A DNA stretch of 64,000 nucleotides, from the NCBI GenBank assembly GCA_964608315.1, contig CAZSNF010000007.1, positions 5,508-69,507 on the forward strand, read 5' to 3'. Each line of letters begins with the position of its first letter. The stretch's first letter is position 1. Both the position numbers and the translations under genes were made by a program. The notes under the pieces were generated by a model, which was not told the origin of the DNA, ran no database searches, and saw nothing but the letters and a program-made list of their open reading frames with translations. The stretch is from an uncultured Rhodothermales bacterium (GTDB lineage: Bacteria; Bacteroidota; Rhodothermia; Rhodothermales; VXPQ01). Shown here piece by piece: positions 3,816 to 58,407 of the stretch.

Positions 3816-4976
3816 TCATTCGCAGCGCTGCGGGGTGGAGCAGGCCTCCAGGACGCGCAGGTATTTTTCCGCCGCTGCATTCCAGCCGAAGTGTTCCAGC
3901 ACATGGCTTACCGTACGCCGGCGGGCCGTTTCGAGCATATCCGGTTCTCGGCGATACGCCAGAATGGCTTCGCAAAAGGCCGTCGCATCCCCGGATCGGA
4001 CCAGTCGGCCGTTTCGCCCGTCCTCGACGACGTCCGCAATGCCTTCGATATTTGCGCCGACGGTGGGCAGGCCGCACAATCCCGCCTCCAGCATGACCAC
4101 GCCAAACCCTTCCATATCCCCCGGAACGGCCACATTGGGCATGACGAAGAGATCGGCGGCGCGGTACATGCCTTCCAGCTCCTTGTGGGTCAGGCGCCCG
4201 AGGAGCCGCACCCGAGACGCGACGCCAGACCGATCTGCGGCGTCGAGAATGCGTTCGGCTTCCGGCCCTTCCCCGGCCAGCCAGTAATGCACGTCCTCGG
4301 GAAGCCGGGGCAGGACCTGTTCGACGAACCAGGCGAACCCTTTTCGTTTTACCTGCCGCCCCGCGCTGCACAGAAGCAGGATATTTTCGGGACGATGTCC
4401 GTCGGCGTTTTCCGGAGGGCCGAACCGCTCGAACAGCATGGCGCGGGCCGTCGTCCGGGGCCAGTCCGACCCGAAGCGCTCCGGCGAGACCCCATTGGGC
4501 ACCACATGCAGCTTTGTTGCCGCCAGCCCGCGTTCGAGACAAGCTGCTCCCGTGGCGCGGCTGACGGGAAATACGGCGTCCAGCGCAGCGAATATGCGCG
4601 GCGCCAGCCACTGGTACGGGGCCGAAGGCAGGGTGGCGTCCCGTCCGTGTACGATGGCGGCCGAGGCGACCCCGTGCTTGCGAAGCGTTCCCTGCAAGAG
4701 CGGTGCGAGCGACGCCGTCACCATGGAGGAGAAGAGCACGGCGTCTATGTCGCCGCGCCGCGCCGCCGCAGTGATACGGAACAGGCTTGATCCCAGAAAC
4801 AGGCCCGCCCGAACATGGGTCCAGCGCCACGAGGTGCGCAGGATGACCGGTTCGATGCGTACGCCGCATTCGAGTAATGCGCGGTACAAATCCGTTGCGA
4901 CGCGCTGCATGCCCCCGATATTGGAAAGGGGGCGGTTTTTTGGGGGAAAGGAATGGGAAACGTAGAGGATGCGCAA
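3816..4976 (-). CDS. Glycosyltransferase family 4 (GT1/GT4 fold)
   Basis: 386 aa. MRILYVSHSFPP..IGGMQRV N-terminus and a C-terminal EGFGVVMLEAGLCGLPTV motif typical of GT4 enzymes. Confidence 0.85.
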   Translation of the reverse strand: MRILYVSHSFPPKNRPLSNIGGMQRVATDLYRALLECGVRIEPVILRTSWRWTHVRAGLFLGSSLFRITAAARRGDIDAVLFSSMVTASLAPLLQGTLRKHGVASAAIVHGRDATLPSAPYQWLAPRIFAALDAVFPVSRATGAACLERGLAATKLHVVPNGVSPERFGSDWPRTTARAMLFERFGPPENADGHRPENILLLCSAGRQVKRKGFAWFVEQVLPRLPEDVHYWLAGEGPEAERILDAADRSGVASRVRLLGRLTHKELEGMYRAADLFVMPNVAVPGDMEGFGVVMLEAGLCGLPTVGANIEGIADVVEDGRNGRLVRSGDATAFCEAILAYRREPDMLETARRRTVSHVLEHFGWNAAAEKYLRVLEACSTPQRCE

Positions 4977-4994
4977 GACGCTGCGGGATAGGCC

Positions 4995-6269
4995 TCAGAG
5001 CGCCCGAATGGCCTGACTGGGCGGCGCCTCGAATACATTGTCGGGGTAGCCGTCGCCTGCGTAGCCGTCCCCGGCCCAGGCGGCTTCCGGATACAGCGCT
5101 TCGTCGTAATAGCGCATCATGCGGGCCATAACTGCGTTCCAGTCGTACGCGCTCGCTCGCTTCCGGGCCGCGGCGCCCATGCGGCGTCGTTCGGGTTCGC
5201 GCAGGATCAGGCGGCGCACGGCTTGCGCAAAGGCCCGGACGTCTCCGGGAGGAATCAGCAGGCCGGTTTCGCCATGCTCCACGAGGGTGCGGCTTCCCGT
5301 GGCGTCGGCGCACACCGCAGGGAGCCCGGAAGCCATGGCTTCAAGGGTAACGTTGCCGAACGTTTCCGTATCGCTGGGAAACAGAAACACATCCGAGGAA
5401 GCGTAGGCGCGGCCCAGTTGTCCGTTTTCCAGCCGCCCGGTGAAAATGGTGCGGGGAAGCTGACGACGCAGATCGTCCAGCACAGGGCCGTCTCCCACGA
5501 TCATGCTTCGGTGCCGGACGCCCTGTTCCTCAAGGTTGCGCACGACCTCTGCAAAGATGTGTACGCCCTTTTCCCGAACGACGCGTCCGATAAAACTGAC
5601 GATCGGCGCGTCGTCCTGCACGCCTATCGAACGCCGCCATGCCTCGTCGTAGTGCGCCGGATTGAAGCGATGCGTATCGACGCCGCGCGTCCAGAGGCGT
5701 ATTCCCTTTTCGATGCCGCGGGAACGCAGCGCCTCGGCCATGGATTCCGACGGCACGTACACATGCCGACACCGGTCGTAAAAGCGCCGGAGGTATTGCC
5801 ATGACCGGGCTTCCAGCCTCCCGAAACCGTAATATCTGAGGTACGAAGAGAAATGCGTGTGATAGGAAGCCACCGCCGGGACGCCTGCTCTTTCCGCAAA
5901 GCGCAGCGCCTGATAGCCCAACAAGTCGGGCGTGGCGATGTGAAACAGATGGGGCCGGAATGTCTTGAGCAGGGACCGGGCGTTCGGCGTGAGGCCCAGC
6001 GAAAGGCGATACTCGGAGCGTTGCGGCACCGGGATCGACGGAACGGGAGCGAGGATGCCGGCATGCTCCACAGGAGGGTTCGCAATGGTCGGCGCAAAAA
6101 TCAGCGCTTCCGTATCGCGGGATTCAAGATAGGACACCAGCCGGTTCAGCGTGAGCGATACGCCGTCGGCGATGTGGTTGTATGCGCCGGTGAAAAGCGC
6201 TACCCGTCGCCGGGTGGCAGAAGCCGGGCGGATGCGTCTCCGGGGTATCGTATGCGTTTCGTATTGCAT
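4995..6269 (-). CDS. Glycosyltransferase family 4
   Basis: 424 aa. VALFTGAYNHIADGVSLTL N-terminus and ETFGNVTLEAMASGLPAV C-terminal GT4 motif. Confidence 0.85.
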   Translation of the reverse strand: MQYETHTIPRRRIRPASATRRRVALFTGAYNHIADGVSLTLNRLVSYLESRDTEALIFAPTIANPPVEHAGILAPVPSIPVPQRSEYRLSLGLTPNARSLLKTFRPHLFHIATPDLLGYQALRFAERAGVPAVASYHTHFSSYLRYYGFGRLEARSWQYLRRFYDRCRHVYVPSESMAEALRSRGIEKGIRLWTRGVDTHRFNPAHYDEAWRRSIGVQDDAPIVSFIGRVVREKGVHIFAEVVRNLEEQGVRHRSMIVGDGPVLDDLRRQLPRTIFTGRLENGQLGRAYASSDVFLFPSDTETFGNVTLEAMASGLPAVCADATGSRTLVEHGETGLLIPPGDVRAFAQAVRRLILREPERRRMGAAARKRASAYDWNAVMARMMRYYDEALYPEAAWAGDGYAGDGYPDNVFEAPPSQAIRAL

Positions 6270-28474: not shown

Positions 28475-29035
28475 TCAGGTCAAATCGCGCAGAAACTGCT
28501 TCAGTGGGTCGAGGGCCGGAGCATTCAGATCCCAGTGCGCAGGGTCGTCATACTTCTTATCCGGGCGCGTTTCTGCCCCGATGGCCTCGCAGTACGCATA
28601 GATTCGCGCCTTGGGATTTGGGGTTATATATGCTTCGTCGAGATCCCCCAAGCAGCTTTTGTACGCGTCGAGGCAATTGTATATCTTTCGATGGGCAGGC
28701 GGGGCTATCTGCTCCAGCAGCGTTTCCAGGCGGCCCGGTTCGTCGTCGTTCGGTAGAAAGAACTCGCATTCGATGGGCAGTTTGAGGCGTGTTTTCTCCT
28801 GTTCAAATTCTTTGCGCCTGTTCTCTGGCTCAGAGTTTGCATCCAGAATGATCGCTACTCGATTTCCTGCATCGCGGCGGCGTTGCATTTCCGGGGCCAT
28901 TGCTTCCAGCTCGCCTATGCCCCCTCCCAGGGGCCGTATCTGTACATTGTTTATGTCCAGGAATCCGAGGAGACACCGGACGAATGCCTTGTCGGACTTG
29001 CCTTCAACGAACACTACCCAGGAACTACCCATCAC
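28475..29035 (-). CDS. Small TOPRIM-like protein (DUF3226/DUF4276/DUF4435-like), partner of the upstream ATPase
   Basis: 186 aa. N-terminal VVFVEGKSDKAFVRCLL (conserved Glu) and AIILDANSE (DxD-like position) match the TOPRIM layout. The ATG overlaps the ATPase stop (ATGA at 29032-29035). Confidence 0.6.
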   Translation of the reverse strand: MMGSSWVVFVEGKSDKAFVRCLLGFLDINNVQIRPLGGGIGELEAMAPEMQRRRDAGNRVAIILDANSEPENRRKEFEQEKTRLKLPIECEFFLPNDDEPGRLETLLEQIAPPAHRKIYNCLDAYKSCLGDLDEAYITPNPKARIYAYCEAIGAETRPDKKYDDPAHWDLNAPALDPLKQFLRDLT

Positions 29036-30165
29036 CTGATCTCTATGCCGTGCCGTATGCAGTGGTCGAATTGTTCGTACTCGTACCGGTAGGGTTGCAC
29101 GAGTCCGTCTTTATCTCGTTGCAGCGCGTAGCAGTTCGTCGTGGCCCGATGCTCGGAGAACGCATCTTCGCGCAGCGCTTGTTGCAGGCTTTCCAATACG
29201 CTGATGCTATGCGTGGTCGCGAACACCTGCATGCCTTGCTCATGCGACAAGGCGAGCAAGGTTTTCAATAAAGACAGTACGGCGGTGTGGTGCAGCCCAT
29301 TTTCCAGTTCGTCGATCAGCAATATCTGCTCTTGTCCGAGAATACACGGGGCGAGAATTGCCGCAGCCCGGACCATGCCGCTGCCGAACATGTTCAGCGG
29401 GATCATCTCGTCGAGGCCTGCATCGGCGTAGGCGGTATTGCCATTGACGGCTATATCGGTGATTCGCGGGTTGATGATCTGCAGGAATTTGACGAGCGTT
29501 TCTGCTTTTTTTTGAACGATCACATTGCCAATCACGTCGCTTGCATAGCCGGACGCCGCCATAACATATATAGTGCTCATTGTTTGTTTGCTTACCGGAT
29601 TCAATGGCTCAGCGAACTGGATGTTGTCGCCGGTTACCACCCGGATCGCATTAGAAAACGACCGACGCGTTCCCTGTCGAGGTTTCACGATGGCGTCATA
29701 CCGCAGCACTCGGGGGCCGGCGGAAACTGAGGAAGAGGATGGATCGTCAGCTTGTCCGGCGCTTCCTGTTCCTTGCGCACTGCCGTTGCCGCCGTTCGCC
29801 ATGTGTTGCTTTCCAATGTCTATCTCGATTTTTTCCTGCTCTGCCGAGAGTTTCAACTCCTGAAATTCGACATCGCCCCGGGAATGGGCCGCCAATCTGA
29901 CCGGCGTATCGATGTCCAGATCGTGAAAGAAAAGGGCCAAATCGTCGAAGTCGTTTACGCGGAGATTTCTCCAGTTCTGGATTCTGATAGCCAAGAACGG
30001 ATTGGCGAAACCCAATAACAGGAAAATCGCTTCCAGGACCGATGTTTTACCCACATCGTTCGCGCCCAGCAGCATGTTGAACGTCCCCAACCCCTCCAGT
30101 TCGAGGTGCTCCAGTCCGCGGAAGCCGCTTATCTCGATCTTGTTCACGTGTTGTTTATCTGCCAT
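29032..30165 (-). CDS. ABC/SMC-like AAA_15/AAA_21-type ATPase
   Basis: Probable start ATG 30165 (MADKQHVNKIEISGFRGLEHLELE). Walker A GANDVGKTS, Walker B/D-loop ILLIDELENGLHHT, ATTHS. Confidence 0.8.
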   Translation of the reverse strand: MADKQHVNKIEISGFRGLEHLELEGLGTFNMLLGANDVGKTSVLEAIFLLLGFANPFLAIRIQNWRNLRVNDFDDLALFFHDLDIDTPVRLAAHSRGDVEFQELKLSAEQEKIEIDIGKQHMANGGNGSAQGTGSAGQADDPSSSSVSAGPRVLRYDAIVKPRQGTRRSFSNAIRVVTGDNIQFAEPLNPVSKQTMSTIYVMAASGYASDVIGNVIVQKKAETLVKFLQIINPRITDIAVNGNTAYADAGLDEMIPLNMFGSGMVRAAAILAPCILGQEQILLIDELENGLHHTAVLSLLKTLLALSHEQGMQVFATTHSISVLESLQQALREDAFSEHRATTNCYALQRDKDGLVQPYRYEYEQFDHCIRHGIEIR

Positions 30166-30302: not shown

Positions 30303-31508
30303 CTACTCCACCCTGAACGGGACGGATAATTCTGTTTCGCCCCACTGTAGTTTGAGTACGCCGCCTTCCTCTGTTTCCTCGACAAGGATGGCGAAGACTT
30401 CGACCGATTCGTCGAGGGCGGTCCGGGTCAGGTCGACGCGGCCCAGGTCGAGGTCCGCATTGTAGGTCGTGCCGCCCTGGCCCGTCTGCGTGTTGACGAG
30501 CAGCAGGCCGCCTTCTTCGGAGGGAATGGCGTAGAGGGTGTATTCGCCGGCGGGCATTTCGAGGTCGCGGACGACGAGGTTGCGGTCCGTGGTAAAGTGC
30601 GTGGCCCGGTTGGCGCCGGTCCGCCAGACTTCGCCATACGGCACCAGCGCGCCGAAGAGTTCCCTGCCCCGCTTCGAGGGCGTACCATAGTCTACCTGGA
30701 TGGCCGCGCCGTGTACGGTGGCGTTGACCTCGCCCCGGCCCGACAGGGCGCCGAACGAACGGCCTTCCCGGTCCCGCGCGGCGAAAGACGCCGCCAGCCC
30801 CTCGATGTCTACCGACGGTACCCGTTCGACGGTCAGTTTGCGCGTAGTGGCTCCGGCGTCGAGATGGAGTAGCCGCCCCGAATCGTCTACCCGAACGTCC
30901 ATCGTACCCCGGAAGGGATGCTGCACGGTCATGGCGCTGTCCGAAGCGCGGCGAATAACGAAGGGCATGATGCGTTGCCCGGCGAAGAGGTCCTGCGTGA
31001 CGCTGTCGGCGCCGGAAGCGTAGGCGCGGGCAAGCATCAGTTCGAAGGGCCAGTGGATCATGTCCAGAAAGGGCAGGACTCCGCCGTGCGCGGCGATGGC
31101 GAATCGAGTGAAAGTGGGATTGTCTTCGCCTCCTTCTGTAATGACGGTGATCAGGCTGTCGCCCGCAAGGGTTGCATGCCCAACCGTCAACACCGAAGTA
31201 TCGGCAGGGCTGGAAGGGTCAGAAACAATTGCCCAGTATTGTTGCAATGCGCCGGTTTCGTCCAGTTCCAGTACGTATTCGCGCATGGTGGTAGTGGGCG
31301 TACGCAGCGCCACATCGGCTTCCATCCCGGTGGGCGTTCGCGTGAACTGCTCCACGGCGAGCGTATCGCTGCCCAGCATGGTTATGAAGGCGGCGTTGTT
31401 CGGGTCGTCGTCCTGAGCCGAGTTGGAGGGGCTTCCGCAGGACAGCAGCGTCAGGGGGATCAGGAGGGTGAGCGCGATGGCCTGGAGCTGGCGAGGCGGT
31501 CTGGTCAT
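30303..31508 (-). CDS. DUF2911-like lipoprotein
   Basis: Lipobox LTLLSCGS. C-terminal YGEVWRTGANRATHFTTDRNLVV..AGEYTLYAIP is recalled from DUF2911 proteins. Confidence 0.7.
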   Translation of the reverse strand: MTRPPRQLQAIALTLLIPLTLLSCGSPSNSAQDDDPNNAAFITMLGSDTLAVEQFTRTPTGMEADVALRTPTTTMREYVLELDETGALQQYWAIVSDPSSPADTSVLTVGHATLAGDSLITVITEGGEDNPTFTRFAIAAHGGVLPFLDMIHWPFELMLARAYASGADSVTQDLFAGQRIMPFVIRRASDSAMTVQHPFRGTMDVRVDDSGRLLHLDAGATTRKLTVERVPSVDIEGLAASFAARDREGRSFGALSGRGEVNATVHGAAIQVDYGTPSKRGRELFGALVPYGEVWRTGANRATHFTTDRNLVVRDLEMPAGEYTLYAIPSEEGGLLLVNTQTGQGGTTYNADLDLGRVDLTRTALDESVEVFAILVEETEEGGVLKLQWGETELSVPFRVE

Positions 31509-31724
31509 GGATGATTTTGGGGTTGAGCAGGCATCGAACGTGCGGAAGCAAGCAAACTCCTGAGGGGTGAGGGGGTTCGGCGGCGGATTTTGTGTCGATG
31601 AGAAAGGTCTCGTTGGTTTATTACGGAGAGATTCGTCTGGCTACGGAACGGAAGGAATGAAGAGATCAAGATGCCCCTGTCGCTGAGTCGCTCGACGGCG
31701 AAATGTGTGCGAGGCCGTCCGCAA

Positions 31725-31900
31725 GGCGCGAAGCGCATCGCTGCTTGGACCTGCTACTTTAACGAAGAGCGTCCCGCCAAGGCCTTGACAATCTCACTCC
31801 CGATGACGTACATTACAGACGAAGGCGGCGTAACCCACCGCAACCCTGCATCTGACCCGGCCCTTGAAAACTGTACAGTTTTTCGGAACACTTCTGACAA
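31725..31900 (+). mobile_element. Decayed 3' remnant of an rve/DDE-type transposase gene plus downstream end sequence
   Basis: RIAAWTCYFNEERPAKA in one frame, then LDNLTPDDVHYRRRR in the +1 frame, resembling the W..YN.eRPH.aL..LTP..VY tail of integrase-core transposases. No intact ORF. Homologous to 53994-54123. Confidence 0.45.
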
Positions 31901-31950
31901 ACTATTTTTTTGGTAAGACTTAGCACACGCCTGCTCACTGGATAGGATAA

Positions 31951-33609
31951 ATGACCGTGAATTTCTCTGGCAGAGGGTTTAGTACGTCAACTCCAGGCCA
32001 GGACTTGGACGAGATAGTCAGTCGCTTGAACGTGGATGACCTCCGAACGATTCTTGGACAAGATGTTCTTGATCTGATTCAGGCGCTCGACAGCATGTCG
32101 GACAATCTTGTAATGTTGAGGCGTCTTGGCAGTATGTTTCTGCACGAGAGTGCAGAAGAAATGCTGGCTCGACGAGATGTTCGAGAACTGTGTCTCAATG
32201 CAATGTCTGCTCAGAAGATCGAAGAGCTTGCCGGGCGCATTGGATTGGAAGATGCCGACGCTGTGCGGACCAAGGATATAGTCAGGGAAGATAAATTGTG
32301 GCATACCTTTCTGGGGTTCTTCGGAGTCAATTTTCGGAAACCTGCTCCGTTCGCGGTTGCGTTGGATAACGAGATTGTGCGGTCGGGGTTCAGCCTATTT
32401 TCACATCAGCGACGGGCTGCTGAAAAAGTACGAGCCGCGATTCGCGGTGGTCGTGGGCGGGTCGTTCTTCATATGCCAACGGGAGCTGGTAAAACCAGAA
32501 CGGCTATGGATGTCGTGAGCCGTATCCTTGTGGAGGCGGAACCGTGTGTTGTCGTCTGGCTAGCCAATAGCGCTGAGTTACTTGATCAAGCCGCCGATGC
32601 TTTCCAACAGGCTTGGGGGCTGTTGGGTAATCGTGATGTTCGTCTCGTGCGTTTTTTTGGGAAAAACACACCTGAATTGTCTGCCGTTTCGGACGGACTG
32701 ATTGTTGCAGGGCTACAGAAGATACATGCTCTGAAGGTGAGAGACCGAATTGCGCTGCTACGCTTGGCGAAAGCGGTTAGACTTGTTGTGGTCGACGAAG
32801 CGCACCAGGCCATTGCTCCTACTTACAGTGAACTGATTAACATACTTGCGGAGACAGGTACGCACAATGCGCTTGTGGGTTTGACGGCAACACCTGGCCG
32901 CACTTGGTCCGACATCGCAGCAGATGAAAGGCTTTCAGAGTTCTTTGGAAATCGGAAGGTTATGCTTGAGATCGAAGGCTGGGATGATCCAGTTTCGTTT
33001 CTCATGGATGAGGGCTATCTAGCGCGTCCACGCTTTCGCCGCTTGGAGATTGAGGCCGAACCAGAGTTGAAGCCGCGTCTCAGTTCTGCCCGAACCAGTG
33101 ACGAATACGATACGGCGTTATTGGAACTCCTTGCAGAGCAAGTTGGCCGCAATGTCGCTATTATCGACGAGGCTAGACGCCTGATCAAAGCTGGTCATAG
33201 CCGGATAATTCTGTTCGGGGCTTCGGTTCGTCATGCTGAAGTGTTGGCTGCCGCGTTTCATGCACTTGAAATTGACGCACACGTTGTCACCGGCAAAACG
33301 GTGTCAACGATACGTAAAAGAACTATCGACGCATTTCGTGGCCCATCGCCGGAACCGATGATCTTGTGTAATTTTGGCGTTCTGACGACCGGTTTCGATG
33401 CTCCGAACACCAGTGCCGCCATTATTGCTCGACCAACGAAGTCTCTTGTACTGTTCAGCCAGATGGTCGGACGTGCAACGCGTGGTACCAAGGCGGGCGG
33501 CAATAAAACTTGCGAGGTTTCCACTGTGGTGGATATCGATTTACCTGGCTTCGGCGATGTTGCCGAAGCATTCACGAATTGGGAGGATATCTGGCATGTC
33601 CCAAACTAA
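31951..33609 (+). CDS. Superfamily 2 DEAD/DEAH-box helicase (COG1061/ResIII-like)
   Basis: Motif I HMPTGAGKTRTA, motif II VVVDEAHQA, motif III GLTATPGR, motif VI QMVGRATRG. 552 aa. Confidence 0.9.
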   Translation: MTVNFSGRGFSTSTPGQDLDEIVSRLNVDDLRTILGQDVLDLIQALDSMSDNLVMLRRLGSMFLHESAEEMLARRDVRELCLNAMSAQKIEELAGRIGLEDADAVRTKDIVREDKLWHTFLGFFGVNFRKPAPFAVALDNEIVRSGFSLFSHQRRAAEKVRAAIRGGRGRVVLHMPTGAGKTRTAMDVVSRILVEAEPCVVVWLANSAELLDQAADAFQQAWGLLGNRDVRLVRFFGKNTPELSAVSDGLIVAGLQKIHALKVRDRIALLRLAKAVRLVVVDEAHQAIAPTYSELINILAETGTHNALVGLTATPGRTWSDIAADERLSEFFGNRKVMLEIEGWDDPVSFLMDEGYLARPRFRRLEIEAEPELKPRLSSARTSDEYDTALLELLAEQVGRNVAIIDEARRLIKAGHSRIILFGASVRHAEVLAAAFHALEIDAHVVTGKTVSTIRKRTIDAFRGPSPEPMILCNFGVLTTGFDAPNTSAAIIARPTKSLVLFSQMVGRATRGTKAGGNKTCEVSTVVDIDLPGFGDVAEAFTNWEDIWHVPN

Positions 33610-35479
33610 AAACCCCGAGTTGGAAAACATAGCAAGTGTCGAGATACTGCCTCTACGGTTGGCTATCACCGCAATGAGGGATTCCGGGTATAAAAACACT
33701 GCTTACGCGCTCGCCGAACTGATTGATAACGCGATACAGGCCAATGCTTCTACAGTGGAGGTGCTATGTGTCGAAAGACGAGAACGTGTGTCAAAGCGTG
33801 AACGCCGACGGCTATGCAAGATGGCGGTTCTCGACAACGGGTGTGGGATGGATGCGCCTACCCTTCAAATCGCGCTGCAATTTGGCAACGGAACCCGCCT
33901 CCGTGATCGGACAGGCATCGGACGTTTCGGTATGGGACTACCTAATGCATCAATTTCGCAGGCAAAAAGGGTGGATGTATGGAGTTGGCAAAATGGGCCG
34001 GACAATGCCATTCATACCTATATCGATCTAAGAGAGATTGAATCGGGAGGAATGAGTGATATTTCATGGCCGAAGCATGACTTCGTGCCTGACGAATGGC
34101 GTAATATCTCTCAAGAGATTGGGAAGAAAGGTACGCTGGTTGTGTGGTCAGATCTAGACCAAACGAGGCTCACATGGAAGGGTGCAGTACCTACACTGCG
34201 CAACACAGAGCGCATCGTGGGCCGTGTGTACAGGCGGTTCATTATGGATAAATCGGTTATGATTCGGCTTGTTGCCATAGAGGAAGGTGGGAGCGAGCCG
34301 AGCCATGATAGATTGGCGGCCTTTGATGATCCTCTGTATCTAACGGCATCGCTAGCGATGCCGGAACCTTTCAACGGTAAGCCGATGTTCGAGCCGGTTT
34401 TTAATGACCCACAACAAATTGAATATGATGGTCAGATGCACGAGGTTATGGTGCGCTACTCGATCGCAACCCCGGATACTGTAACCGAGGCCGGTACACA
34501 ACATCGAGGCCAGACGAAGTATGGAAAACACGCCCGTGGAAATATCGGTGTCTCAGTCATGCGAGCGGGTCGAGAAATTATGCTTGACCAAGGATGGTGT
34601 ATTGGATATGATCCAAGAGAGCGATGGTGGGGTGCTGAGGTCGAGTTCCCGCCAGCACTCGACGAGTTGTTTGGTGTTACCAACAACAAACAAGCGGCCA
34701 CACACTTCTCTGGACTCGCCGTAATTGAATTGGAGCAACTGTTTGAAGAGGGAGAAGAGTTCTTTGATGCCGTGAACCGTTTGAAGGAAGAGGGTGATCC
34801 GCGAGGCTGGTTGCTTGAGTTGGCTGACAGCATCAAGCGAACCCTCGCACAGATACGGGAGGCAGTCAAAGCGCAGGGTGCGGCTTCGCGCTCAAGCAAA
34901 CGAAATCGTCATGACGGGGAAACAGGTGCAACAACCATCCCGAAAGCAGATCCTCTCACCCGTCAAGCCAACGAGGGTTGGAGGGAACGGTCGAAAGAGC
35001 ATCCGATCGAGGGAGAAAACGTATCTCCTACCGAAGAGGATCTTGAGGAGATACGGACCGATCTTGAGAAAAATAAGAAGTACAGTGAAATCGATGCATC
35101 AGATATCGTTTCACTGATTCGTGATGCAGATTTAAAGGTCGTTTTTCTGGAAGCAGATTTTCCAGATGCCTATCAATTGTTCAATGTCGAGATGAAAGGA
35201 CCCGTGACAGAGATCACATTCAATCGAAAACACCCGGCCTTTGATGATATTTTTGGAACGATCACAACGGTGGACGAGAATGTTGACGAGCTCACAAAAG
35301 AGGAGGTTCTTGACCGACTTATACGGGCTATTAACTCCAGCAAGATCATCTTTGCGGCATGGGCACGCTATGAGCGCGAGGCCGGAATCGGCAGGTTGTC
35401 AGCTCTACAAAGGGTTCGTTTTGATTGGGGGCAAATAGCTGCGAAATTTCTTCAACCAGAAAATGACTCCATTTTGTAA
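33596..35479 (+). CDS. GHKL (HATPase_c_3 / MORC-like) ATPase
   Basis: ATG 33596 overlaps the helicase 3' end by 14 nt. N-box ELIDNAIQA, G1 box LDNGCGM, G2 box GRFGMGLPNAS. 627 aa. Confidence 0.85.
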   Translation: MSQTKNPELENIASVEILPLRLAITAMRDSGYKNTAYALAELIDNAIQANASTVEVLCVERRERVSKRERRRLCKMAVLDNGCGMDAPTLQIALQFGNGTRLRDRTGIGRFGMGLPNASISQAKRVDVWSWQNGPDNAIHTYIDLREIESGGMSDISWPKHDFVPDEWRNISQEIGKKGTLVVWSDLDQTRLTWKGAVPTLRNTERIVGRVYRRFIMDKSVMIRLVAIEEGGSEPSHDRLAAFDDPLYLTASLAMPEPFNGKPMFEPVFNDPQQIEYDGQMHEVMVRYSIATPDTVTEAGTQHRGQTKYGKHARGNIGVSVMRAGREIMLDQGWCIGYDPRERWWGAEVEFPPALDELFGVTNNKQAATHFSGLAVIELEQLFEEGEEFFDAVNRLKEEGDPRGWLLELADSIKRTLAQIREAVKAQGAASRSSKRNRHDGETGATTIPKADPLTRQANEGWRERSKEHPIEGENVSPTEEDLEEIRTDLEKNKKYSEIDASDIVSLIRDADLKVVFLEADFPDAYQLFNVEMKGPVTEITFNRKHPAFDDIFGTITTVDENVDELTKEEVLDRLIRAINSSKIIFAAWARYEREAGIGRLSALQRVRFDWGQIAAKFLQPENDSIL

Positions 35480-35499
35480 TCCCATCGAAGGTGTAATCC

Positions 35500-36414
35500 A
35501 TGGTATTAGACGGGGAACGGCTAAAGGGTCTTCTGCAGAATGCGCAGCATGAAGTTTTGCTATGTACTCCTTTTATCAAAGCTAAAGTACTGGAGACAGT
35601 TCTATCGGTTGTTGATGCATCAGTATTTGTTCGAATTTTTACAAGATGGCGGGCGGCTGAAATTGCCGCAGGTGTAAGTGATTTGGCGGTGTTCGAGATT
35701 GCCAATGAACGTCCACGCACTGAACTCAAGTTGCTGGATGATATTCATGCCAAGCTTTATATGGCTGACAATAGGGGTTTGGTCGGTTCTGCAAACCTCA
35801 CGGCAACAGCGTTGGGTTGGACTGAGCGGAGCAATGTCGAAATCCTTATTCCGGTGCAGCGCACCAATGCCGAAGTCTTGTACTTGTTGAAGCGCTTGGA
35901 ATCGGCGGCCCAAGCCACGTTCACAATCCGTTCTGCGGTTGCAGAGGAGGCTGTAGCTCTCACGGAGTTGAAACTAGATGAAAGTTTAGACATGGTGGAA
36001 GAGAGTGAAAACAAAAGGAAACAAGAATGGCTCCCTCGTTGTGCGGCACCACAGAAACTATACACAATGTACGTTGATACCGATACCACCGCTGTTGTCG
36101 AGGGGACAAGGGGGGACGGGCTCGCTGATTTGCACGACCTGAATATTCCCCGAGGTCTGACCAAAGGGGATTTTGCCGATGAAGTGCGAGAAATTCTTTG
36201 CTTGATGCCAGTGTTCAAGCGAATCATTGATCTGGTTCCTAAAGGGCTGAGTGATGCGGATGGTGTTCGGTTTGTCAGTGAGACACGCCCCACACTATCT
36301 GGTTCAGAAGCGACTCTTCAATGGCGTATCATCCGTGATTGGATAGAAGTCTTTTTCGCAAACCAATTTGAGGTGGCTCCAGATTCGTTCGTCACCCGCC
36401 TGAGGCAAAGATAG
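35500..36414 (+). CDS. PLD-family (HKD) nuclease
   Basis: HKD motif HAKLYMADNRGLVGSANLT. 304 aa, starting 20 nt after the GHKL gene. Confidence 0.85.
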   Translation: MVLDGERLKGLLQNAQHEVLLCTPFIKAKVLETVLSVVDASVFVRIFTRWRAAEIAAGVSDLAVFEIANERPRTELKLLDDIHAKLYMADNRGLVGSANLTATALGWTERSNVEILIPVQRTNAEVLYLLKRLESAAQATFTIRSAVAEEAVALTELKLDESLDMVEESENKRKQEWLPRCAAPQKLYTMYVDTDTTAVVEGTRGDGLADLHDLNIPRGLTKGDFADEVREILCLMPVFKRIIDLVPKGLSDADGVRFVSETRPTLSGSEATLQWRIIRDWIEVFFANQFEVAPDSFVTRLRQR

Positions 36415-36456: not shown

Positions 36457-37707
36457 TTATAGTACAGGCAAATTAATTGTATTATCTTCTATTATTTCAC
36501 GATATTTTGATACTAAATATTCCTTCGATTTTTTAGAGGAACCAAGCATGTAAAGGAGAATTTCACGAAGTGTGGGGTTATGAGAGTTAGAAATAGTCCT
36601 AGTACTGGTATTCCACATAAGTCCTCTATATGGAGGTAGACTAAGGTTTGTCGGAAGTTTTGCAGCCTGTTCGACCGCATCCATAAGAGAGATGTCTTGT
36701 GTCAATTTTGACACAATGCGTGTAAATATTTTCAAACCAATAGGTCTAAACAGTACACTACCTCCATGTTCTCCACGGTATTTTTTTACAACACTCTCGG
36801 TATTTTGTGCAGAAAAAAATTCATCCAATTCTTTAAAAAATCTTCTAAGTTGAAGAAAAAATTGATTCGAATAATCAAAATATTGGTCAAGATCATTTTG
36901 ACTCGGACGTACTCTTTGCAGCACAGGTCCCTTTTTACGCAAGGGAAAATTGGAATCTCTAAATAATATGGTCAATATATCGTATAAATTACCGATGGTT
37001 GTTAAACTTATTGTATTTGATGAAGATACATTATTGCTCGCAACGAAAGCGATTCGATCATCAGAAAAAAGATCACTTTCTTCAATAAGTCTGCGAACAC
37101 AAATCGCCATGACATCATCTTCGTCCAACGCTATAATATCACCCTTCGATACAGGTCTTGCAGTTTTATTCAGTGTTGCAAAGAGTCGGCGTGTTCGCTC
37201 AAGGCCGTTATTGGTATTCTGGTGTGCAACAAAAATTACCGACACTTCATCGTAAGGATCATTTTCTAATCCATCTTGCACTGCTCTTTTGATGCCTGCG
37301 AGTCGGTGTTGTCCGTCTAATGCGAACAGGTTTTCATCTCCGCGAAGCGTAAGAAATCCGACTGAAGAAATGGTATCTTTGCTCAAATTTGTTATCTCAT
37401 CAATCCGAGTCGTGCTTCGAACATTGGATAGTGCGTACCAGTTTGGTTGTCCGCCATATGTGGCAATAACGAGAAAATTGAAGAAGCGCTCTGGCTGAAT
37501 CTTGAGATATTCTGCAATCTGTGTGCTTCGATCTTTCGTTAGCTGTCTCTGTATCATGTCCGAGAGTGCTTTGCTTTTATGTATTTCCTCGGCATAATGA
37601 ACCCGTGAACTCAGTTCTCCTAGGTCCATCAGGCAGGAATAATAAACCCAGTCTCCCATAACACCACGAAGTGCTGGTAAGGTGATCTCGTGCAGATTTC
37701 TTGTCAT
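36457..37707 (-). CDS. DGQHR-domain (DndB-like, ParB/Srx fold) protein
   Basis: FALDGQHRLAGIKRA motif, N-terminal ALRGVMGDWVYYSCLM and QRQL..R...IAEYL as in DndB. Very low GC (hand counts of 25% and 40% in two 60-nt lines). The ATG overlaps the upstream stop (ATGA at 37704-37707). Confidence 0.85.
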   Translation of the reverse strand: MTRNLHEITLPALRGVMGDWVYYSCLMDLGELSSRVHYAEEIHKSKALSDMIQRQLTKDRSTQIAEYLKIQPERFFNFLVIATYGGQPNWYALSNVRSTTRIDEITNLSKDTISSVGFLTLRGDENLFALDGQHRLAGIKRAVQDGLENDPYDEVSVIFVAHQNTNNGLERTRRLFATLNKTARPVSKGDIIALDEDDVMAICVRRLIEESDLFSDDRIAFVASNNVSSSNTISLTTIGNLYDILTILFRDSNFPLRKKGPVLQRVRPSQNDLDQYFDYSNQFFLQLRRFFKELDEFFSAQNTESVVKKYRGEHGGSVLFRPIGLKIFTRIVSKLTQDISLMDAVEQAAKLPTNLSLPPYRGLMWNTSTRTISNSHNPTLREILLYMLGSSKKSKEYLVSKYREIIEDNTINLPVL

Positions 37708-38222
37708 ACTCTGAATGCCCTCCGCTTGTGCCTCGTTTCGGCCTCCAGGTCATTGTTCGAAAATGGCGGCATAAGTGCGGTGTTGAGCTGCTTCTCCAGT
37801 GTCTTTAGATCGTCGGAAGAAATTTCGTCACCAACGGGTGCGAAGAAAAACCGCAGCACCTGATGCCAAGTTCCGATCATACGTGTGATCTGGACGCGCT
37901 TTCTTACTTTTTTTTCGTTAAGGTAATCCTTGTATCGGTCTCTCAGAGAGCGTTCAGAATCCCTGCCCGTAATCCCGATATAGAGGACGTACCCGTGTGG
38001 TGGCAGTACATCATTGTTCTCACAGATTGCAAAGGCGTAAACGCCTCGCCTGTTATCGGGAACCTTGTCAATCTCTTCTGTGCCATAGCTGATAGAGTTC
38101 CACGCAAGGTCGGGAATGATGTATTGGGTCGCCATCATTTTGTCGGATGACAGCGTGACGGTGATCCTAAATTTACCTATTTCGGCTGCCGCCTCGTCAG
38201 CAAAATCTATGAGTGTGTTCAT
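37704..38222 (-). CDS. GIY-YIG-like nuclease domain protein
   Basis: GVYAF...YVLYIGIT (GIY/YIG elements with a longer spacer), followed by Arg (RSLRDRY) and later Glu/Asn (LEKQLNTALMPPFSNN). 172 aa. Confidence 0.55.
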   Translation of the reverse strand: MNTLIDFADEAAAEIGKFRITVTLSSDKMMATQYIIPDLAWNSISYGTEEIDKVPDNRRGVYAFAICENNDVLPPHGYVLYIGITGRDSERSLRDRYKDYLNEKKVRKRVQITRMIGTWHQVLRFFFAPVGDEISSDDLKTLEKQLNTALMPPFSNNDLEAETRHKRRAFRV

Positions 38223-38245
38223 GTCAATCGTCCAGTTTTGTCATG

Positions 38246-45240: not shown

Positions 45241-45284
45241 CCTTAAAAATTTAAGTCCAAAAAATTAGACTTAAAAAATTAAGG
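45241..45284. repeat. AT-only paired motif CCTTAAAAATTTAAGTC / GACTTAAAAAATTAAGG
   Basis: Two CTTAA..TTAAG-type near-palindromes 28 nt apart, abutting the start of repeat copy 2. Related motifs occur at 56941-56987, 57251-57265 and 57378-57429. Confidence 0.6.
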
Positions 45285-46733: not shown

Positions 46734-49115
<2,382 letters not shown>

Positions 49116-53990: not shown

Positions 53991-54123
53991 GGGTTGACAA
54001 CCTTACGCCCGACAACGTATATTACAGGCGCAAGCTGCTGGCGAAGACGGTGGAATCCACCGCAATCCTGTACTTGAAACGAATCCCGCAAAACTGTCCA
54101 GTTTTTACGGACCACTTCTTCCC
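53991..54123 (+). mobile_element. Short remnant homologous to the transposase-tail/end sequence at 31785-31900; contains a TTGACA-N18-TATATT promoter-like pair and a palindrome
   Basis: One frame reads VDNLTPDNVYYRRKLL. Shared blocks with the other locus include TTGACAA, ACGTAYATTACAG, CCACCGCAAYCCTG, AAAACTGTMCAGTTTTT (54090-54106) and CGGAMCACTTCT. TTGACA at 53994-53999, TATATT at 54018-54023. Confidence 0.45.
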
Positions 54124-54130
54124 AATAATT

Positions 54131-55537
54131 ATGCTGAAGGAGTTACGAATACAAAATTTCAAAGGGTGGAAGGATACCGGCGTCATTCGCATGGCCCCCA
54201 TTTCCCTGTTCTTCGGCGCTAACAGTTCTGGCAAGTCCAGCATAAGCCAGTTCCTGATGATGCTGAAGCAGACCGCCGAGTCCCCGGATCGAAAAGCGGT
54301 TTTTTATCCGGGCGGAAAAAACTCTGCCGTTCAGCTTGGTTCCTATCAGGAGATGGTGTTCCACCGTGACCCGGCAAACAAGATCACTTTCGAGTATCGG
54401 TGGTCGTTGCCGGATACCCTCAGGATTAAAGACCCGGTCTCGGAGCAATCGTACTCAGGAAGCGAACTGGTTTTCCAGGTAGGAGTGGGGCTGGGTGATA
54501 AAGATCAGCATACATTGGTTCTCGATAAACTTAAGTATGAATTGATTGGAGATGAGAACATCCAGCTTTCACTTGGGATGGAAAGAAAGTCTGACACAAA
54601 ATCTGATTACAAGGTTGAAGCTACGAAGTATTCCCTAAGGCGTAAACAGGGGCGTGCCTGGTATCCCGGGGCGCCCGTTCGCTTTTATGGCTTTCCTGAC
54701 GAGGTGGTTGCCTATCATCAAAATGCCGAATTTGCCCAGGCATTGAACTTGTGCCATGAAAAATTATTCAGATCGATCTATTATCTAGGACCGCTTCGCA
54801 CAAAGGCCGAACGTCTGTATTCATGGACAGGCATTGAGCCTGAAAGTGTCGGCTATGCGGGGGAGAATACCGTCGCGGCCATTCTCGCGGGACGAAGCCG
54901 AAAAATCAGCCTTGGCTATAGATGTCGATACAAACCTTTCGAAGAAATTATTGCCATCAAGCTCAAGGAAATGAGCCTGATCGAAGAATTCAAGGTCAAC
55001 CGCATATCCGAACAGCGGCAAGAATACGAGGTCAAGCTTCGTACCAAAGGTTCAGGGGATTGGGTGGATCTCCCGGATGTCGGTTTCGGCATTTCCCAGG
55101 TTTTGCCCGTTCTCGTGCAGTGCTTTTATGCGCCAGCCGGGTCGATCATTTTCATGGAACAACCGGAGATTCATCTGCATCCGAACGCTCAGTCAGCATT
55201 GGCCGATGTGATGATTGACGTGATCAAGTCCAGAGAAAATGGGGCGGATAGAAATATCCAGTTGGTTATTGAAACCCATTCGGAACATTTCCTGCGACGC
55301 TTGCAGCGACGAATTGCCGAGGATAAGGTGTCGCAAGAGGAGGTGTCGGCTTATTTCGCTAATATCTCCAAAGCCCCTGCTACGCTCAAGCCTCTGCAAA
55401 TTGATGTCTTCGGCAACATCCAGAACTGGCCGGAAAATTTTTTCGGTGATGAAATGGGTGACATCATCGAACAAGCGAAAGCGTCCATGGCAAAACGGGC
55501 GCGAAACAGCTCCCCAAAATCGGAAGCATTCCAGTGA
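54131..55537 (+). CDS. ABC/SMC-like AAA_15/AAA_21-type ATPase (DUF3696-like C-terminus)
   Basis: MLKELRIQNFKGWKD, Walker A GANSSGKSS, Walker B/D-loop IIFMEQPEIHLHP, ETHSEHF. The C-terminal IDVFGNIQNWPENFFGDE is recalled from DUF3696. 468 aa. Confidence 0.85.
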   Translation: MLKELRIQNFKGWKDTGVIRMAPISLFFGANSSGKSSISQFLMMLKQTAESPDRKAVFYPGGKNSAVQLGSYQEMVFHRDPANKITFEYRWSLPDTLRIKDPVSEQSYSGSELVFQVGVGLGDKDQHTLVLDKLKYELIGDENIQLSLGMERKSDTKSDYKVEATKYSLRRKQGRAWYPGAPVRFYGFPDEVVAYHQNAEFAQALNLCHEKLFRSIYYLGPLRTKAERLYSWTGIEPESVGYAGENTVAAILAGRSRKISLGYRCRYKPFEEIIAIKLKEMSLIEEFKVNRISEQRQEYEVKLRTKGSGDWVDLPDVGFGISQVLPVLVQCFYAPAGSIIFMEQPEIHLHPNAQSALADVMIDVIKSRENGADRNIQLVIETHSEHFLRRLQRRIAEDKVSQEEVSAYFANISKAPATLKPLQIDVFGNIQNWPENFFGDEMGDIIEQAKASMAKRARNSSPKSEAFQ

Positions 55538-56067
55538 ATTTGCCGAAGAAGTGCATAGTGGATACAAATGTCCCGGTTAACGCAAATTTAGCAAACAACC
55601 CGGAAGCAATCCCTGACGATTTGGTCACCTGCGTACAAAGTTGTGTCAGCGCCATTGATCATGTGATGAAAAAAGGTGAATTCGTTATTGATTCCGGTGA
55701 TGAAATTTATGGCGAGTATTTAGGCAATCTTTGCCCAAGTGGTCGAAAGGGAATTGGTAATGCATTCATGAAGTGGGTTCACGATAATCGCTGGAGCCTG
55801 CTTGATACTGACCGGGTAGCCATCACGAAAAACGACGAGTCATATGACGAATTTCCCGCTCACCCCGGATTGGAAAATTTCGACAAATCGGATCGTAAGT
55901 TTGTTGCCGTTGCAAACGCTCACCCTGCAAAACCGCCGATCTTGCAGGCGACAGACAGCAAGTGGTGGGGCTGGAAAGATGCTTTAATGGAGGTTGGCAT
56001 TACCGTTCAATTCATCTGCCCCAAATATGTAAAGACCAAGCATGCGAAGAAGATAGGCATAACGTGA
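55534..56067 (+). CDS. PIN-like nuclease domain protein
   Basis: GTG start overlaps the ATPase stop (GTGA at 55534-55537). N-terminal CIVDTNVPVNAN, later DSGDEIY, DRKFVAVANA, LQATDSKWW. 177 aa. Confidence 0.55.
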   Translation: MNLPKKCIVDTNVPVNANLANNPEAIPDDLVTCVQSCVSAIDHVMKKGEFVIDSGDEIYGEYLGNLCPSGRKGIGNAFMKWVHDNRWSLLDTDRVAITKNDESYDEFPAHPGLENFDKSDRKFVAVANAHPAKPPILQATDSKWWGWKDALMEVGITVQFICPKYVKTKHAKKIGIT

Positions 56068-56750
56068 AAGACGATTTCTTCAAATTTCCATCCACACGCC
56101 ATCTGGCAGCACTGGCTGGCGTTGATATCCGAGATGACAAAGTATTATCGGAATCGGAACGTGATGAATTCTTGCTGCACGAACTGGTTATTGAAGAAAA
56201 AATAGATGGCGCGAATTTGGGCATATCGTTTGATTCAGAGGGAAATATTCGGGCGCAGAACAGAGGCGCATACCTGCATCTACCCGCATCAGGTCAATGG
56301 AAAAAAATTCTTGACTGGTTGGCGCCTCGGACCGATGAGCTGTTTGAACATCTTTCAGAGCATTTCATACTCTTCGGCGAATGGTGTTACGCCCAGCATT
56401 CGATTTTTTATGATCGTTTACCGGACTGGTTCCTTGGTTTCGATATTTATGACAAACAATTTCGCCGGTTTCTTTCTTCGGAGCATCGGGATGCTCTCTT
56501 AAAGGAAATGCATATTGCTCAAGTGCCAGTTGTCGCACGCGGGCGCTTCGCCTACCCGGAAATTCCAAAACTTCTGTCCACATCAAAACTTGGTGATCAG
56601 CCCGCGGAAGGCCTCTATCTCCGATTTGACCAGGGTAACTGGCTGGCGCAACGGGCCAAACTGGTTCTTCCGGCGTTTATTCAGTCGGTGGAGCAGCACT
56701 GGTCACGTGCTGTCATCAAGCCAAACCGGTTGAGGCTGTCAAAATATTAG
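56064..56750 (+). CDS. Rnl2/PF09414-type ATP-dependent RNA ligase family protein
   Basis: GTG start overlaps the upstream stop (GTGA at 56064-56067). Ligase motif I EEKIDGANLGI, III ILFGEWCYAQH, IV FLGFDIYD, V AEGLYLRF/AKLV. 228 aa. Confidence 0.8.
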   Translation: MKDDFFKFPSTRHLAALAGVDIRDDKVLSESERDEFLLHELVIEEKIDGANLGISFDSEGNIRAQNRGAYLHLPASGQWKKILDWLAPRTDELFEHLSEHFILFGEWCYAQHSIFYDRLPDWFLGFDIYDKQFRRFLSSEHRDALLKEMHIAQVPVVARGRFAYPEIPKLLSTSKLGDQPAEGLYLRFDQGNWLAQRAKLVLPAFIQSVEQHWSRAVIKPNRLRLSKY

Positions 56751-56940
56751 AGGGTGTCTTGTAAACTGTGTAAGCGCGTTTAAGGTTCGTCGGGCATTCT
56801 GTCTGCGTAGAGTATGACGAACTGGTTGAGCGAGTCCTTCCGGTAACTCCTATTATCGGCCTTTTCAACGGACGAAGCCCTGCGCGGGTACTGTATTTCC
56901 TCTGGAAAAAGGGCAATGTCCCGTTCAGTGGATAACTAAA

Positions 56941-56987
56941 CCTTAATTATTTAAGTTTAAAAATTTTAACCTAAATTATTTAGGTTT
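56941..56987. repeat. AT-only paired motif CCTTAATTATTTAAGTTT / CCTAAATTATTTAGGTTT
   Basis: Direct repeats 29 nt apart. The 13-mer TTAATTATTTAAG (56943-56955) recurs exactly at 57381-57393. Confidence 0.6.
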
Positions 56988-57377
56988 CGTATTATTGCGG
57001 CAAAATTTTCCCTTCTCTAAAATCCGCCCCGATCGGCTCCCGTCCCGACCTTGGTGAGGCGCGCCGCCTTTTTCAGGCGCGCCAGAGCGCCCGGAACTGT
57101 CCGTACGCCGCGCCCGCGCTATTCCACTCGGGCGGCGCCAACGTCTCGCAGGGCCATTTGCGGGCGTACTCACGCACTGCGCTGGATGCGCCCGAAAACA
57201 CTGCCGAACGCCTCGGAACGCCCGGATGGGTCATCCAATTTGTTTAAGGGCCTTAAAAAATGAGGCAAATTCTATAAAAAACCATCGAAAGGCGCCCGAA
57301 TGTGCTGAAAACCCCTGAAAATGGCGTTTTAGACGAAGTGTCGGGGAAGGCGAATGTTCTCTTAAGAAGGTAACATA

Positions 57378-57429
57378 AATTTAATTATTTAAGGTCTTGT
57401 TTTTTGAAATTAAATAATTTAACTTAAAG
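57378..57429. repeat. AT-only inverted repeat (AATTATTTAA / TTAAATAATT) upstream of the DUF1640 gene
   Basis: ATTTAATTATTTAAGG...GAAATTAAATAATTTAAC forms a 10-bp AT stem. It shares the 13-mer with 56943-56955. Confidence 0.55.
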
Positions 57430-57535
57430 ATGTCCGGAAAGGGCAGCACTCGAAACGAATCGCCGCTTGACGCCATGAGCAATGGAACAGAATGCTGGAA
57501 ACGGTATATTAAACCGTACCAACCCGCCGCAAGCC

Positions 57536-57883
57536 ATGATTGATACTCTTGCCATCGCCAGCGATCTCGTCGCAGCGGGAGTCGCAAAGCCTCAGGCCGA
57601 AGCACACGCCAGGGCCATTGCGACCGCCGTCGGGCAGCAGTACGCGGACATCGCCACGAAAGATTTCGTGCGCAGCGAAATAAGCGCCCTTCGGGCAGAG
57701 TTACGGGAAGAAATAGGCGCCCTTCGGACAGAGGTACGGGAAGAAATAAGTGCTGTACGCGGAGAAATAAGTGCTGTACGCGGAGAAATGAGCGCCCTTG
57801 AAACCCGTCTTGTGCGCTGGATAGTCGGAACGATGATCGCCGGCGGAGGCCTCTTGTTCGCCGCGCTGCATTTCATACCGTAA
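57536..57883 (+). CDS. DUF1640-like coiled-coil membrane-anchored protein
   Basis: Probable start ATG 57536 (MIDTLAIASDLVAAGV...). Heptad-like EISALRAELREEIGALRTEVREEISAVRGEISAVRGEMSALE. C-terminal TM IVGTMIAGGGLLFAALHF. Contains a perfect 21-bp in-frame tandem repeat at 57743-57784. Confidence 0.65.
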   Translation: MIDTLAIASDLVAAGVAKPQAEAHARAIATAVGQQYADIATKDFVRSEISALRAELREEIGALRTEVREEISAVRGEISAVRGEMSALETRLVRWIVGTMIAGGGLLFAALHFIP

Positions 57884-57951
57884 TCGCCTGGGCCTGAAGT
57901 CCGGCGCGTCGCCTCGAACGCATACCCTGCGTCGTTAACCCGCCGCAAGCT

Positions 57952-58119
57952 ATGCTTGATGCGCTTGCCATTGCCCAGGATATCGCCGCTGCGTCGTTCG
58001 CCGCCCCTGTCGGCCCGCCGCCCACCCCCGACCCCGTATTCCCGCCTGCGCCTGCGGTCGTAGGGGATTGCGAAACGGGCGAGGTGGGCGCAGTCGGAAT
58101 GGCGCAGGCGTACGCATAA
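57952..58119 (+). pseudogene. Truncated or divergent paralog of the DUF1640 gene start (55 codons)
   Basis: AACCCGCCGCAAGCTATGCTTGATGCGCTTGCCATTGCCCAGGATATCGCC repeats the leader and first ~14 codons of the upstream gene (MLDALAIAQDIAAA). It then diverges into a Pro-rich tail. Below the ORF-track cutoff. Confidence 0.4.
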
Positions 58120-58407
58120 TATTCCCATTATTATATAACGCATAATCCGCTCTGCCCTGCGGCCAGCTTTTCGGTCGTTGGGCGCCGCTCCGCCTCCCTG
58201 CCGGATTTTCGTCCGTCAGGCGCCAATCCGCGCCCGATATCCCCTCTATTACCCTTTTATTACCTCTCTATTTCATCCCGAAGGGAATACATGTCTATAT
58301 TGCACATATTTTGAACATATAAATGTATAAAAATATCGACTCAACAGCGATTTTTTTCCCATAAAAGGCTTGACATTACAAATTTCCGCCGTAATTTGAC
58401 TGAACAA

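Follow-up and report, generated by a model that had tools for sequence, protein, structure and literature searches.

Two segments of a 64,000-nt stretch of Rhodothermales DNA (the whole stretch is referred to as the window), each upstream of a different operon, are almost certainly what is left of the right end of an IS3-family insertion sequence (IS). The explanation as a whole is very likely, although the proposal that these IS3 right-end relics also serve as promoter and leader for the adjacent operons is its much less certain part. The original prediction had described both operons as defence-like, and Pfam and PADLOC matches in each agree with this.

The shared segment and its parent element

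Global alignment of window positions 31784-31895 (copy 1, 112 nt) and 53993-54119 (copy 2, 127 nt) gives 87 identical positions, with one 13-nt gap and two 1-nt gaps. A blastn comparison inside the 64,000-nt window pairs the two copies with an E-value of 4e-9. The alignment originally proposed, 31785-31900 with 53994-54123, thus joined real segments but ran too far, as the true similarity stops at 31895 and 54119 (...CACTTCT). Each shared block is confined to these two places in the window, with 0.05-1.2 chance matches expected per block (0.05 for the 17-nt palindrome and 0.12 for TTGACAAYCTYACKCCCGA).

A full-length related IS occurs in multiple copies in Rhodothermales MAGs. The reference copy, at positions 4543-5990 of L021 (loci compared with the window are given L numbers), is 1,448 bp long and ends in ...AAAACTGTCCAGTTTTTACGGACCACTTCT, and its positions 1-29 pair with the right end as terminal inverted repeats. 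Pfam assigns HTH_Tnp_1 to OrfA (E 2.8e-8) and HTH_21, rve (3.7e-23) and rve_3 (1e-16) to OrfB, which terminates in ...YFNEERPHQGLDNRTPDDVFYERKPLPKAA*. The two open reading frames, 5447..5779 and 4605..5411 on the minus strand, are offset by 368 nt, which places orfB in the -1 frame, and a TTTTTTA run near the end of orfA is a candidate slippery site. No target-site duplication is visible around this single L021 copy, which is itself nested inside another IS. The same OrfA HTH, OrfB DDE rve domain in the -1 frame, length of about 1.45 kb and inverted repeats are found in elements of the IS911/IS2/IS3/IS150 type. The Rhodothermales ends differ from the canonical ...CA of IS3-family elements in reading ...CTTCT, while Rhodobacteraceae IS3-type ends found in the same scan read ...CTTCA. 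We take the Rhodothermales end to resemble the IS911 IRR, TGAAGTGGTCAACAAAAACTGG. At the left end of the L021 element, positions 5948-5991 form a perfect 44-nt palindrome (AGAAGTGGTCCGAAAAAACTGGACAGTTTTTTCGGACCACTTCT), equivalent to two minimal ends back to back; it is present with the same flanks in three loci (L021, L007 and L010), inside an IS1595-like gene.

The scan in question covered one genome per species with the end-motif pattern ACTGTNCAGTTTT-N1-2-CGGNNCACTT and returned 37 loci, more than 12 of them in one Rhodothermales chromosome (OZ252093.1) and many at contig ends. At least nine right ends in OZ252093.1 have differing flanks. Since the Rhodothermales copies are constant through ...CGGACCACTTCT and their flanks become unrelated right after CACTTCT, this boundary behaves like the tip of a mobile element. 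The palindrome core ACTGTCCAGTTTT was also found at IS3-type ends in Rhodobacteraceae, Limnobacter and Gemmataceae.

Compared with the whole window by blastn, the L021 IS matches only 53994-54119 (E 5e-11) and 31753-31823 (E 2e-9) plus 31867-31895, and both matches terminate at the IS tip. The window segments correspond to the last ~125-170 nt of this related element and end where it ends. The frameshift-corrected copy-1 peptide has rve_3 as its sole Pfam match (profile positions 44-67 of 67, E 2e-4); with 24 residues, its score unsurprisingly stays under the gathering threshold. In tblastn the spliced peptide retrieved annotated IS3 family transposases in plasmids with borderline E-values. 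Taken together, the IS match, the rve_3 match and the behaviour of the tip indicate that the shared leader consists of the last codons of an IS3 transposase followed by the right inverted repeat. The original reading of the block as the decayed C-terminal tail of an rve/DDE transposase plus an element end is thereby borne out: a multi-copy IS3 has the same tail and end, and the similarity between the copies ceases at its tip. The parent type and terminus that had been sought are likewise supplied by this full-length IS3-family relative, whose tip lies at CACTTCT.

The copies show six differences in the first block; read in the frame DNLTPD(D/N)V(H/Y)Y, four of these fall on third codon positions and leave the amino acid unchanged. 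As the differences are largely synonymous, the copies separated before the sequence had ceased to code, and neither is a recent duplicate of the other. Both scars come from the same IS sub-lineage, with the tail DNLTPDD.. No full-length parent with the DNLTPDD tail was recovered, the closest being a 500-nt remnant in L050, and neither a scan of viral_contigs nor two of metagenome_contigs found the window's own sub-lineage. A blastn search of plasmids with 31690-31950 gave chance-level matches only, and a tblastn search with the 23-aa tail alone, a query too short and of low complexity, found nothing.

The features noted in the original prediction are thus parts of the IS, and their inheritance from a mobile element is confirmed. 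TTGACA and TAYATT arise incidentally from the codons for L-D-N and V-(H/Y)-Y, and the same codons are present in all IS copies. The 17-nt palindrome combines the inner, normally transposase-bound part of the IS repeat with its subterminal complement. The window relics keep the IS end up to the tip ...CGGAMCACTTCT and are without OrfA, the catalytic core and the left end.

Structure of the two copies and of the pyrG-mraZ insertion

Ahead of the tail of copy 1 lies a weak OrfB N-terminal-like fragment (LSLSRSTA) at 31670..31699 on the plus strand, which matches positions 600-629 of the L021 IS (83% over 30 nt, E 0.02, blastn). Copy 1 is probably an internally deleted IS in which this fragment has been joined to the tail. 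The decayed last OrfB codons follow at 31725..31833 (plus strand) and are 78% identical to the L021 IS (E 2e-9) and 76% identical to the L050 IS (E 3e-18) in blastn. In order, they comprise ...IAAWTCYFNEERP, a 1-nt deletion, LDNLTPDDVHY, a 13-nt deletion, ..KAA and the stop codon TAA at 31831-31833. The 1-nt deletion is the source of the shifted frame at YFNEERP, which had been correctly predicted along with the translations LDNLTPDDVHY for copy 1 and VDNLTPDNVYY for copy 2. A TGA stop in the +1 frame common to both tails was considered and discarded, as real IS copies show that the frame ends ..KAA-TAA. The sigma-70-like pair TTGACA-N18-TACATT (31785..31814, plus strand) lies within the transposase tail, on the codons L-D-N and V-H-Y. 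It has 10 of 12 matches to a consensus that may not be that of the Rhodothermales sigma-A, and is the sole such site in 31450-32050. The non-coding right end occupies 31834..31895 (plus strand), with the palindrome AAAACTGTACAGTTTTT at 31867-31883 and the terminal repeat CGGAACACTTCT. Its tip, 31895, is 55 nt before the start of the first operon.

In copy 2, the last OrfB codons, (V)DNLTPDNVYYRRKLLAKTV, occupy 53994..54055 on the plus strand (84% identity over 19 aa to the L050 OrfB, tblastn), and the copy as a whole matches the L021 IS at 71% over 128 nt (E 5e-11, blastn). Copy 2 is still in frame, with GAA (54053-54055) where the stop codon used to be. The pair TTGACA-N18-TATATT (53994..54023, plus strand) is the sole site in the upstream region, matching 11 of 12 positions of the same consensus, with the same reservation as to Rhodothermales sigma-A; all five HEC-03 leaders that were compared still have the pair. 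The non-coding right end (54056..54119, plus strand) carries the palindrome AAAACTGTCCAGTTTTT at 54090-54106 and the terminal repeat ACGGACCACTTCT, and its tip at 54119 is 11 nt before the ATG. Both promoter-like pairs and both palindromes are thus located where the original prediction had placed them. No tRNA was found at either locus.

Copy 2 lies between pyrG and mraZ. The window pyrG is 82% identical to that of a Rhodothermales MAG, 78-79% to that of Rhodocaloribacter and 77% to that of Rhodothermus. A close relative, L057 (pyrG 92% identical), has an empty site with the order pyrG, terminator, MITE, mraZ. Homology between the window and L057 ceases at 53991 and restarts at 58304; therefore, 53992..58303 represents the whole insertion. 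The IS3 scar forms its exact left edge, which follows the pyrG stop codon by 3 nt and precedes TTGACA by 3 nt. L057 has a pyrG terminator that is gone in the window, so that HEC-03 could be expressed by read-through from pyrG, with no part played by the scar.

The right edge of the second operon is marked by an IS256-family (Transposase_mut) scar at 56748..56850 on the minus strand, made up of the C-terminal codons ..LNQFVILYADR and an end. In blastn it matches L021 3111-3209 (78%, E 1e-13), where the L021 open reading frame is a Transposase_mut protein (E 5e-119). This scar comes directly after the RNA ligase stop codon, and the matching IS is multi-copy in a Rhodothermales MAG. Public Logan contigs break at the IS256 scar, L001 ending at about window position 56822. 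Beyond it, local direct repeats (56909/57347, 57521/57937 and 57677/57710, in the region 56909-57993) surround a small coiled-coil membrane ORF at 57482-57883 with a weak CCDC90-like match; an ORF resembling it adjoins an IS end in L011.

Several other features of the window were recorded. A conserved TTGACA-N16/17-TAATTT lies upstream of mraZ, at 58369-58400 in the window and at about 10180-10215 in L057, and gives a weak indication that sigma-70-like -35 boxes may be used in the Rhodothermales lineage. A MITE-like repeat of about 260 nt with terminal inverted repeats of 31-34 nt (TTAAGGATGCTCTGATCAAAT...) is found at 43758-44016 and 45279-45543, the two copies flanking a gene at 44035-45222, and in partial form at 51307-51353, 52177-52228 and 15989-16013. 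A copy with 77% identity lies in the empty pyrG-mraZ site of L057 (9785-10045). A lone Rfam match to CRISPR-DR16 (46812-46861, minus strand; 37.6 bits, gathering score 35), at the end of a long ORF and without an array, is probably spurious.

The HEC-03 operon and its leaders in related genomes

The second operon (54131..56750, plus strand) encodes the HEC-03B ATPase, HEC-03A and an RNA ligase. HEC-03 is a candidate defence system in PADLOC. HEC-03B has the domains AAA_15, AAA_21 and DUF3696 and is identified by PADLOC with an E-value of 3.2e-130, next to HEC-03A with 8.9e-26. The middle gene had been taken for a PIN protein, but it is without a Pfam match and matches only HEC-03A in PADLOC. 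HEC-03B is about 80% identical across many phyla.

The scar precedes HEC-03 homologues in three other chromosomal contexts, four with the window. In L041, where the ATPase is 92% identical and the context is different, the same leader is present at 85% identity with the junction CACTyCT-TCCCrATArTT-ATG. In L043, L044, L045 and L051 (83-84% identical, downstream of glnS), the leader is more decayed. In L050 (84% identical), a 500-nt stretch of the IS survives that is 82% identical to L021 and contains a 142-aa ORF with rve and rve_3; here the tip abuts the ATG. Because the IS tip lies directly at the ATG, the L050 junction differs from the others and a second, independent insertion is conceivable. 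Everything upstream of TTGACA has been lost at lineage-specific points, and the last ~125 nt are kept in five HEC-03 lineages. Thus, the IS end and HEC-03 have been inherited together within the Rhodothermales group, with loss of the IS body at points specific to each lineage.

Three runs are invariant across the five leaders: CTGTCCAGTTTTT (13 nt), TTGACAA (7 nt) and ACGTA (5 nt). Four-fold sites in the adjacent ATPase genes, of which 40.5% are invariant over the same five genomes, served as a neutral benchmark. Against it, a run of 13 or more has a probability of about 6e-4 in 152 columns, in a test that was framed after the data had been seen, uses five related sequences and assumes independent sites. 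Similarly, the last ~75 nt of L043 and L051 are about 95% identical by eye, compared with 69% at four-fold sites; the repeat core shows no change in 13 positions and the adjoining IS tip 5 changes in 12. These figures suggest that the -35, the -10 and the repeat core of the HEC-03 leaders are under constraint, and some of the invariance may be left over from the stage of an active IS end.

In other contexts and phyla (L042, L052 and L053), no IS leader was found before HEC-03, which comes after upstream genes with a GGAGG ribosome-binding site. HEC-03 of other phyla lies within BREX-like loci, without the IS leader; in L042 and L052 it has an N6_N4 methyltransferase upstream and an SNF2 helicase and PglZ downstream. 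As HEC-03 lies inside BREX-like loci outside Rhodothermales, it may be an accessory module of BREX-like systems there.

The helicase-GHKL-PLD operon and its neighbourhood

The first operon (31951..36414, plus strand) encodes a PbeA-like ResIII helicase (E 7e-20), a GHKL ATPase (HATPase_c_3) and a PLD-family protein (PLDc_2). The PADLOC matches of this triad are to PbeA, MzaB and ZacB/DrmC-like proteins, with none to Ssp. The scar is absent from the triad homologues in L047, L048 and L049 (72-74% identical), which have a 136-nt spacer after sspB-C-D. The syntenic L046 (78% identical) contains a scrambled relic that shares CGTACATTACAG and a tail fragment and is without TTGACA and the palindrome, and the triad operon persists there despite their loss. 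The idea of a shared delivery vehicle for both operons thus stands only in part: the scar is attached to HEC-03 in four chromosomal contexts, but homologues of the helicase-GHKL-PLD triad are without it or have a scrambled one.

The window triad is inverted relative to sspD/C (38246-42474, minus strand); copy 1 therefore lies at the breakpoint of a rearrangement and does not form part of the operon's conserved structure. Copy 1 appears to mark the rearrangement that split the triad from sspBCD. In L047 (631-9438) and L049 (1-6827), the triad directly follows sspB-C-D, the position in which a phosphorothioate-dependent restriction module would sit. SspFGH is encoded by three genes next to sspBCD, with a Walker A motif in SspF and a translocase-like SspH (PMC8092258). 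An SspFGH identity of the triad was considered and finds no support in the published description, the ResIII, GHKL and PLD domains not being obviously those reported (PMC8092258). Since these domains do not obviously match SspFGH or SspE, the triad may be an undescribed Ssp-coupled effector.

Convergent to the triad, a minus-strand gene group at 36457-42474 encodes a DndB-family protein, a 172-aa protein without a family match, SspD (E 2e-136) and a 1,130-aa ORF. The last corresponds to a 1,131-aa protein before SspD in L046 and L047, presumably SspC. In L046 a DUF4365 gene takes the place of the DndB-like gene. An AbiL-type pair at 28475-30165 on the minus strand, consisting of an AbiLi-like ATPase (E 2e-56) and a small partner ORF, lies on the opposite side of a DUF2911 gene from copy 1.

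A possible promoter and leader for the adjacent operons

One of the two operons, or both, probably owes a promoter to the IS3 scar. After deletion of the IS bodies, the remaining ~125 nt would act as a promoter and a 5' untranslated leader of about 100 nt for the horizontally acquired operon. HEC-03 in other phyla appears to be carried inside larger loci with a Shine-Dalgarno sequence and without a promoter of its own. Upon transfer into a new phylum it would have lost its native upstream genes and arrived without a promoter, and the IS3 relic would have provided one. On balance, use of the scar as promoter and leader of HEC-03 is favoured, because TTGACAA, ACGTA and CTGTCCAGTTTTT are invariant beyond the neutral expectation. 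A corresponding use for the triad is possible, in this genome only, and is put forward more tentatively.

Outward promoters borne by IS elements, including those of the IS3 family, are well documented (PMC9330008). The loci described here resemble those cases in that an IS end lies directly upstream of acquired genes, is oriented towards them and contains a complete -35/-10 pair. They differ in that the IS is reduced to its promoter-bearing end and is inherited with its cargo across lineages, and in that they carry an anti-phage system, not a resistance gene; the promoter is a candidate recognised from sequence. Two other promoter arrangements, a Bacteroidetes-type -33/-7 hybrid and an IS911-style outward -35 near the tip, were inspected by eye and rejected, as their spacing is inconsistent across the leaders, especially in L050.

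A more elaborate role, in which the IS3 end would have become a domesticated, portable module for the expression and control of HEC-03 and CTGTCCAGTTTTT would be kept for binding by OrfA/OrfAB of resident or incoming IS3 copies, is highly improbable. If it were true, the domesticated IS3 end would tie defence expression, or mobilisation of the cassette in trans, to transposase activity.

Alternative explanations

The scars could instead be functionless relics of IS3 ends in IS-tolerant low-GC islands, the operons being transcribed otherwise, by read-through from pyrG into HEC-03 or from other promoters. This is a possibility to be taken seriously, although we do not consider it the probable one. 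Active IS copies lie beside genes for a sulfatase, a glycosidase and ribosomal protein S1 and beside other IS elements, and hence there is no intrinsic link between the IS and defence. The flanking of the HEC-03 operon by an unrelated IS256 scar, the missing L057-type pyrG terminator and the loss of the -35 and palindrome in L046 also fit inert scars. Such scars do not account well for the survival of the last ~125 nt in five HEC-03 lineages with different upstream deletions, for the coincidence of the invariant blocks with the -35, -10 and repeat core beyond four-fold-site expectation, or for a deletion in the window that halts 3 nt before TTGACA. Alternatively, the IS3 may have mobilised HEC-03 next to its right end as a unit, leaving the scar as the remnant of the vehicle. 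ISEcp1 and ISPme1 mobilise DNA next to their right ends, as does possibly ISPpy1 of the IS3 family (PMC9330008, section 7.3), and this precedent is matched here by an outward-promoter right end followed by passenger genes as a unit at several sites, with the same IS end and junction before HEC-03 in four contexts and a scar that is the exact left edge relative to an empty site. Unlike those modules, the present loci are without a surrogate end, a target duplication or an IS body. No second IS3 or surrogate end was found past the cargo in the window, L041, L043, L050 or L051; searches of the window for a left or second IS3 end gave chance decamers only, and the one inspected (3888-3897) showed no IS end. 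In addition, the right flanks differ between loci, no target-site duplications were identified and the different contexts may stem from rearrangement after one ancestral insertion, all of which makes a transposable unit unlikely.

Two regulatory readings of the shared leader fare less well. According to the original prediction, the palindrome could be a common operator; a host or IS protein (OrfA/OrfAB) would then co-regulate both operons through it. Its position between the promoter-like pair and the ATG would suit this, as would the invariance of CTGTCCAGTTTTT in the five HEC-03 leaders while the adjoining IS tip decayed in L043 and L051. The palindrome is, however, the core of the IS inverted repeat, and it is CTGTCCAGTTTTT that is conserved, not the symmetry: the left arm is missing in L050, and in L043 and L051 the arms are reduced to AACTG/CAGTT. 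Active IS ends show the same invariance in this block, homologues of the first operon do not have the element and no regulator gene is linked to either operon, so that a common operator is very unlikely. A structured RNA leader common to both operons, such as a riboswitch, attenuator or small RNA, is scarcely credible. The region would be a 5' UTR if the promoter-like pair were used, and a short hairpin is possible at the palindrome (-5.9 kcal/mol), but neither locus has an Rfam match, the folding energies are not better than those of shuffled sequences (z -0.75 and +1.37), the consensus fold is weak (-6.7 kcal/mol) with essentially no covariation, and the substitutions in the first block are codon-like.

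Implications

The idea of a special regulatory signature common to defence islands is removed by these results, as the similarity between the two leaders is that of a transposon scar. Scans of defence islands for common leaders should therefore mask IS ends first. A scar of an IS end is in itself a familiar kind of object; its apparent retention with an anti-phage operon across lineages is the twist. IS scars also mark the exact edges of small defence insertions, for which the empty pyrG-mraZ site serves as a comparison. If the IS3 right end does act as proposed, the Rhodothermales HEC-03 loci would offer a case, open to experiment, in which an anti-phage operon has kept an IS remnant as its promoter and leader.
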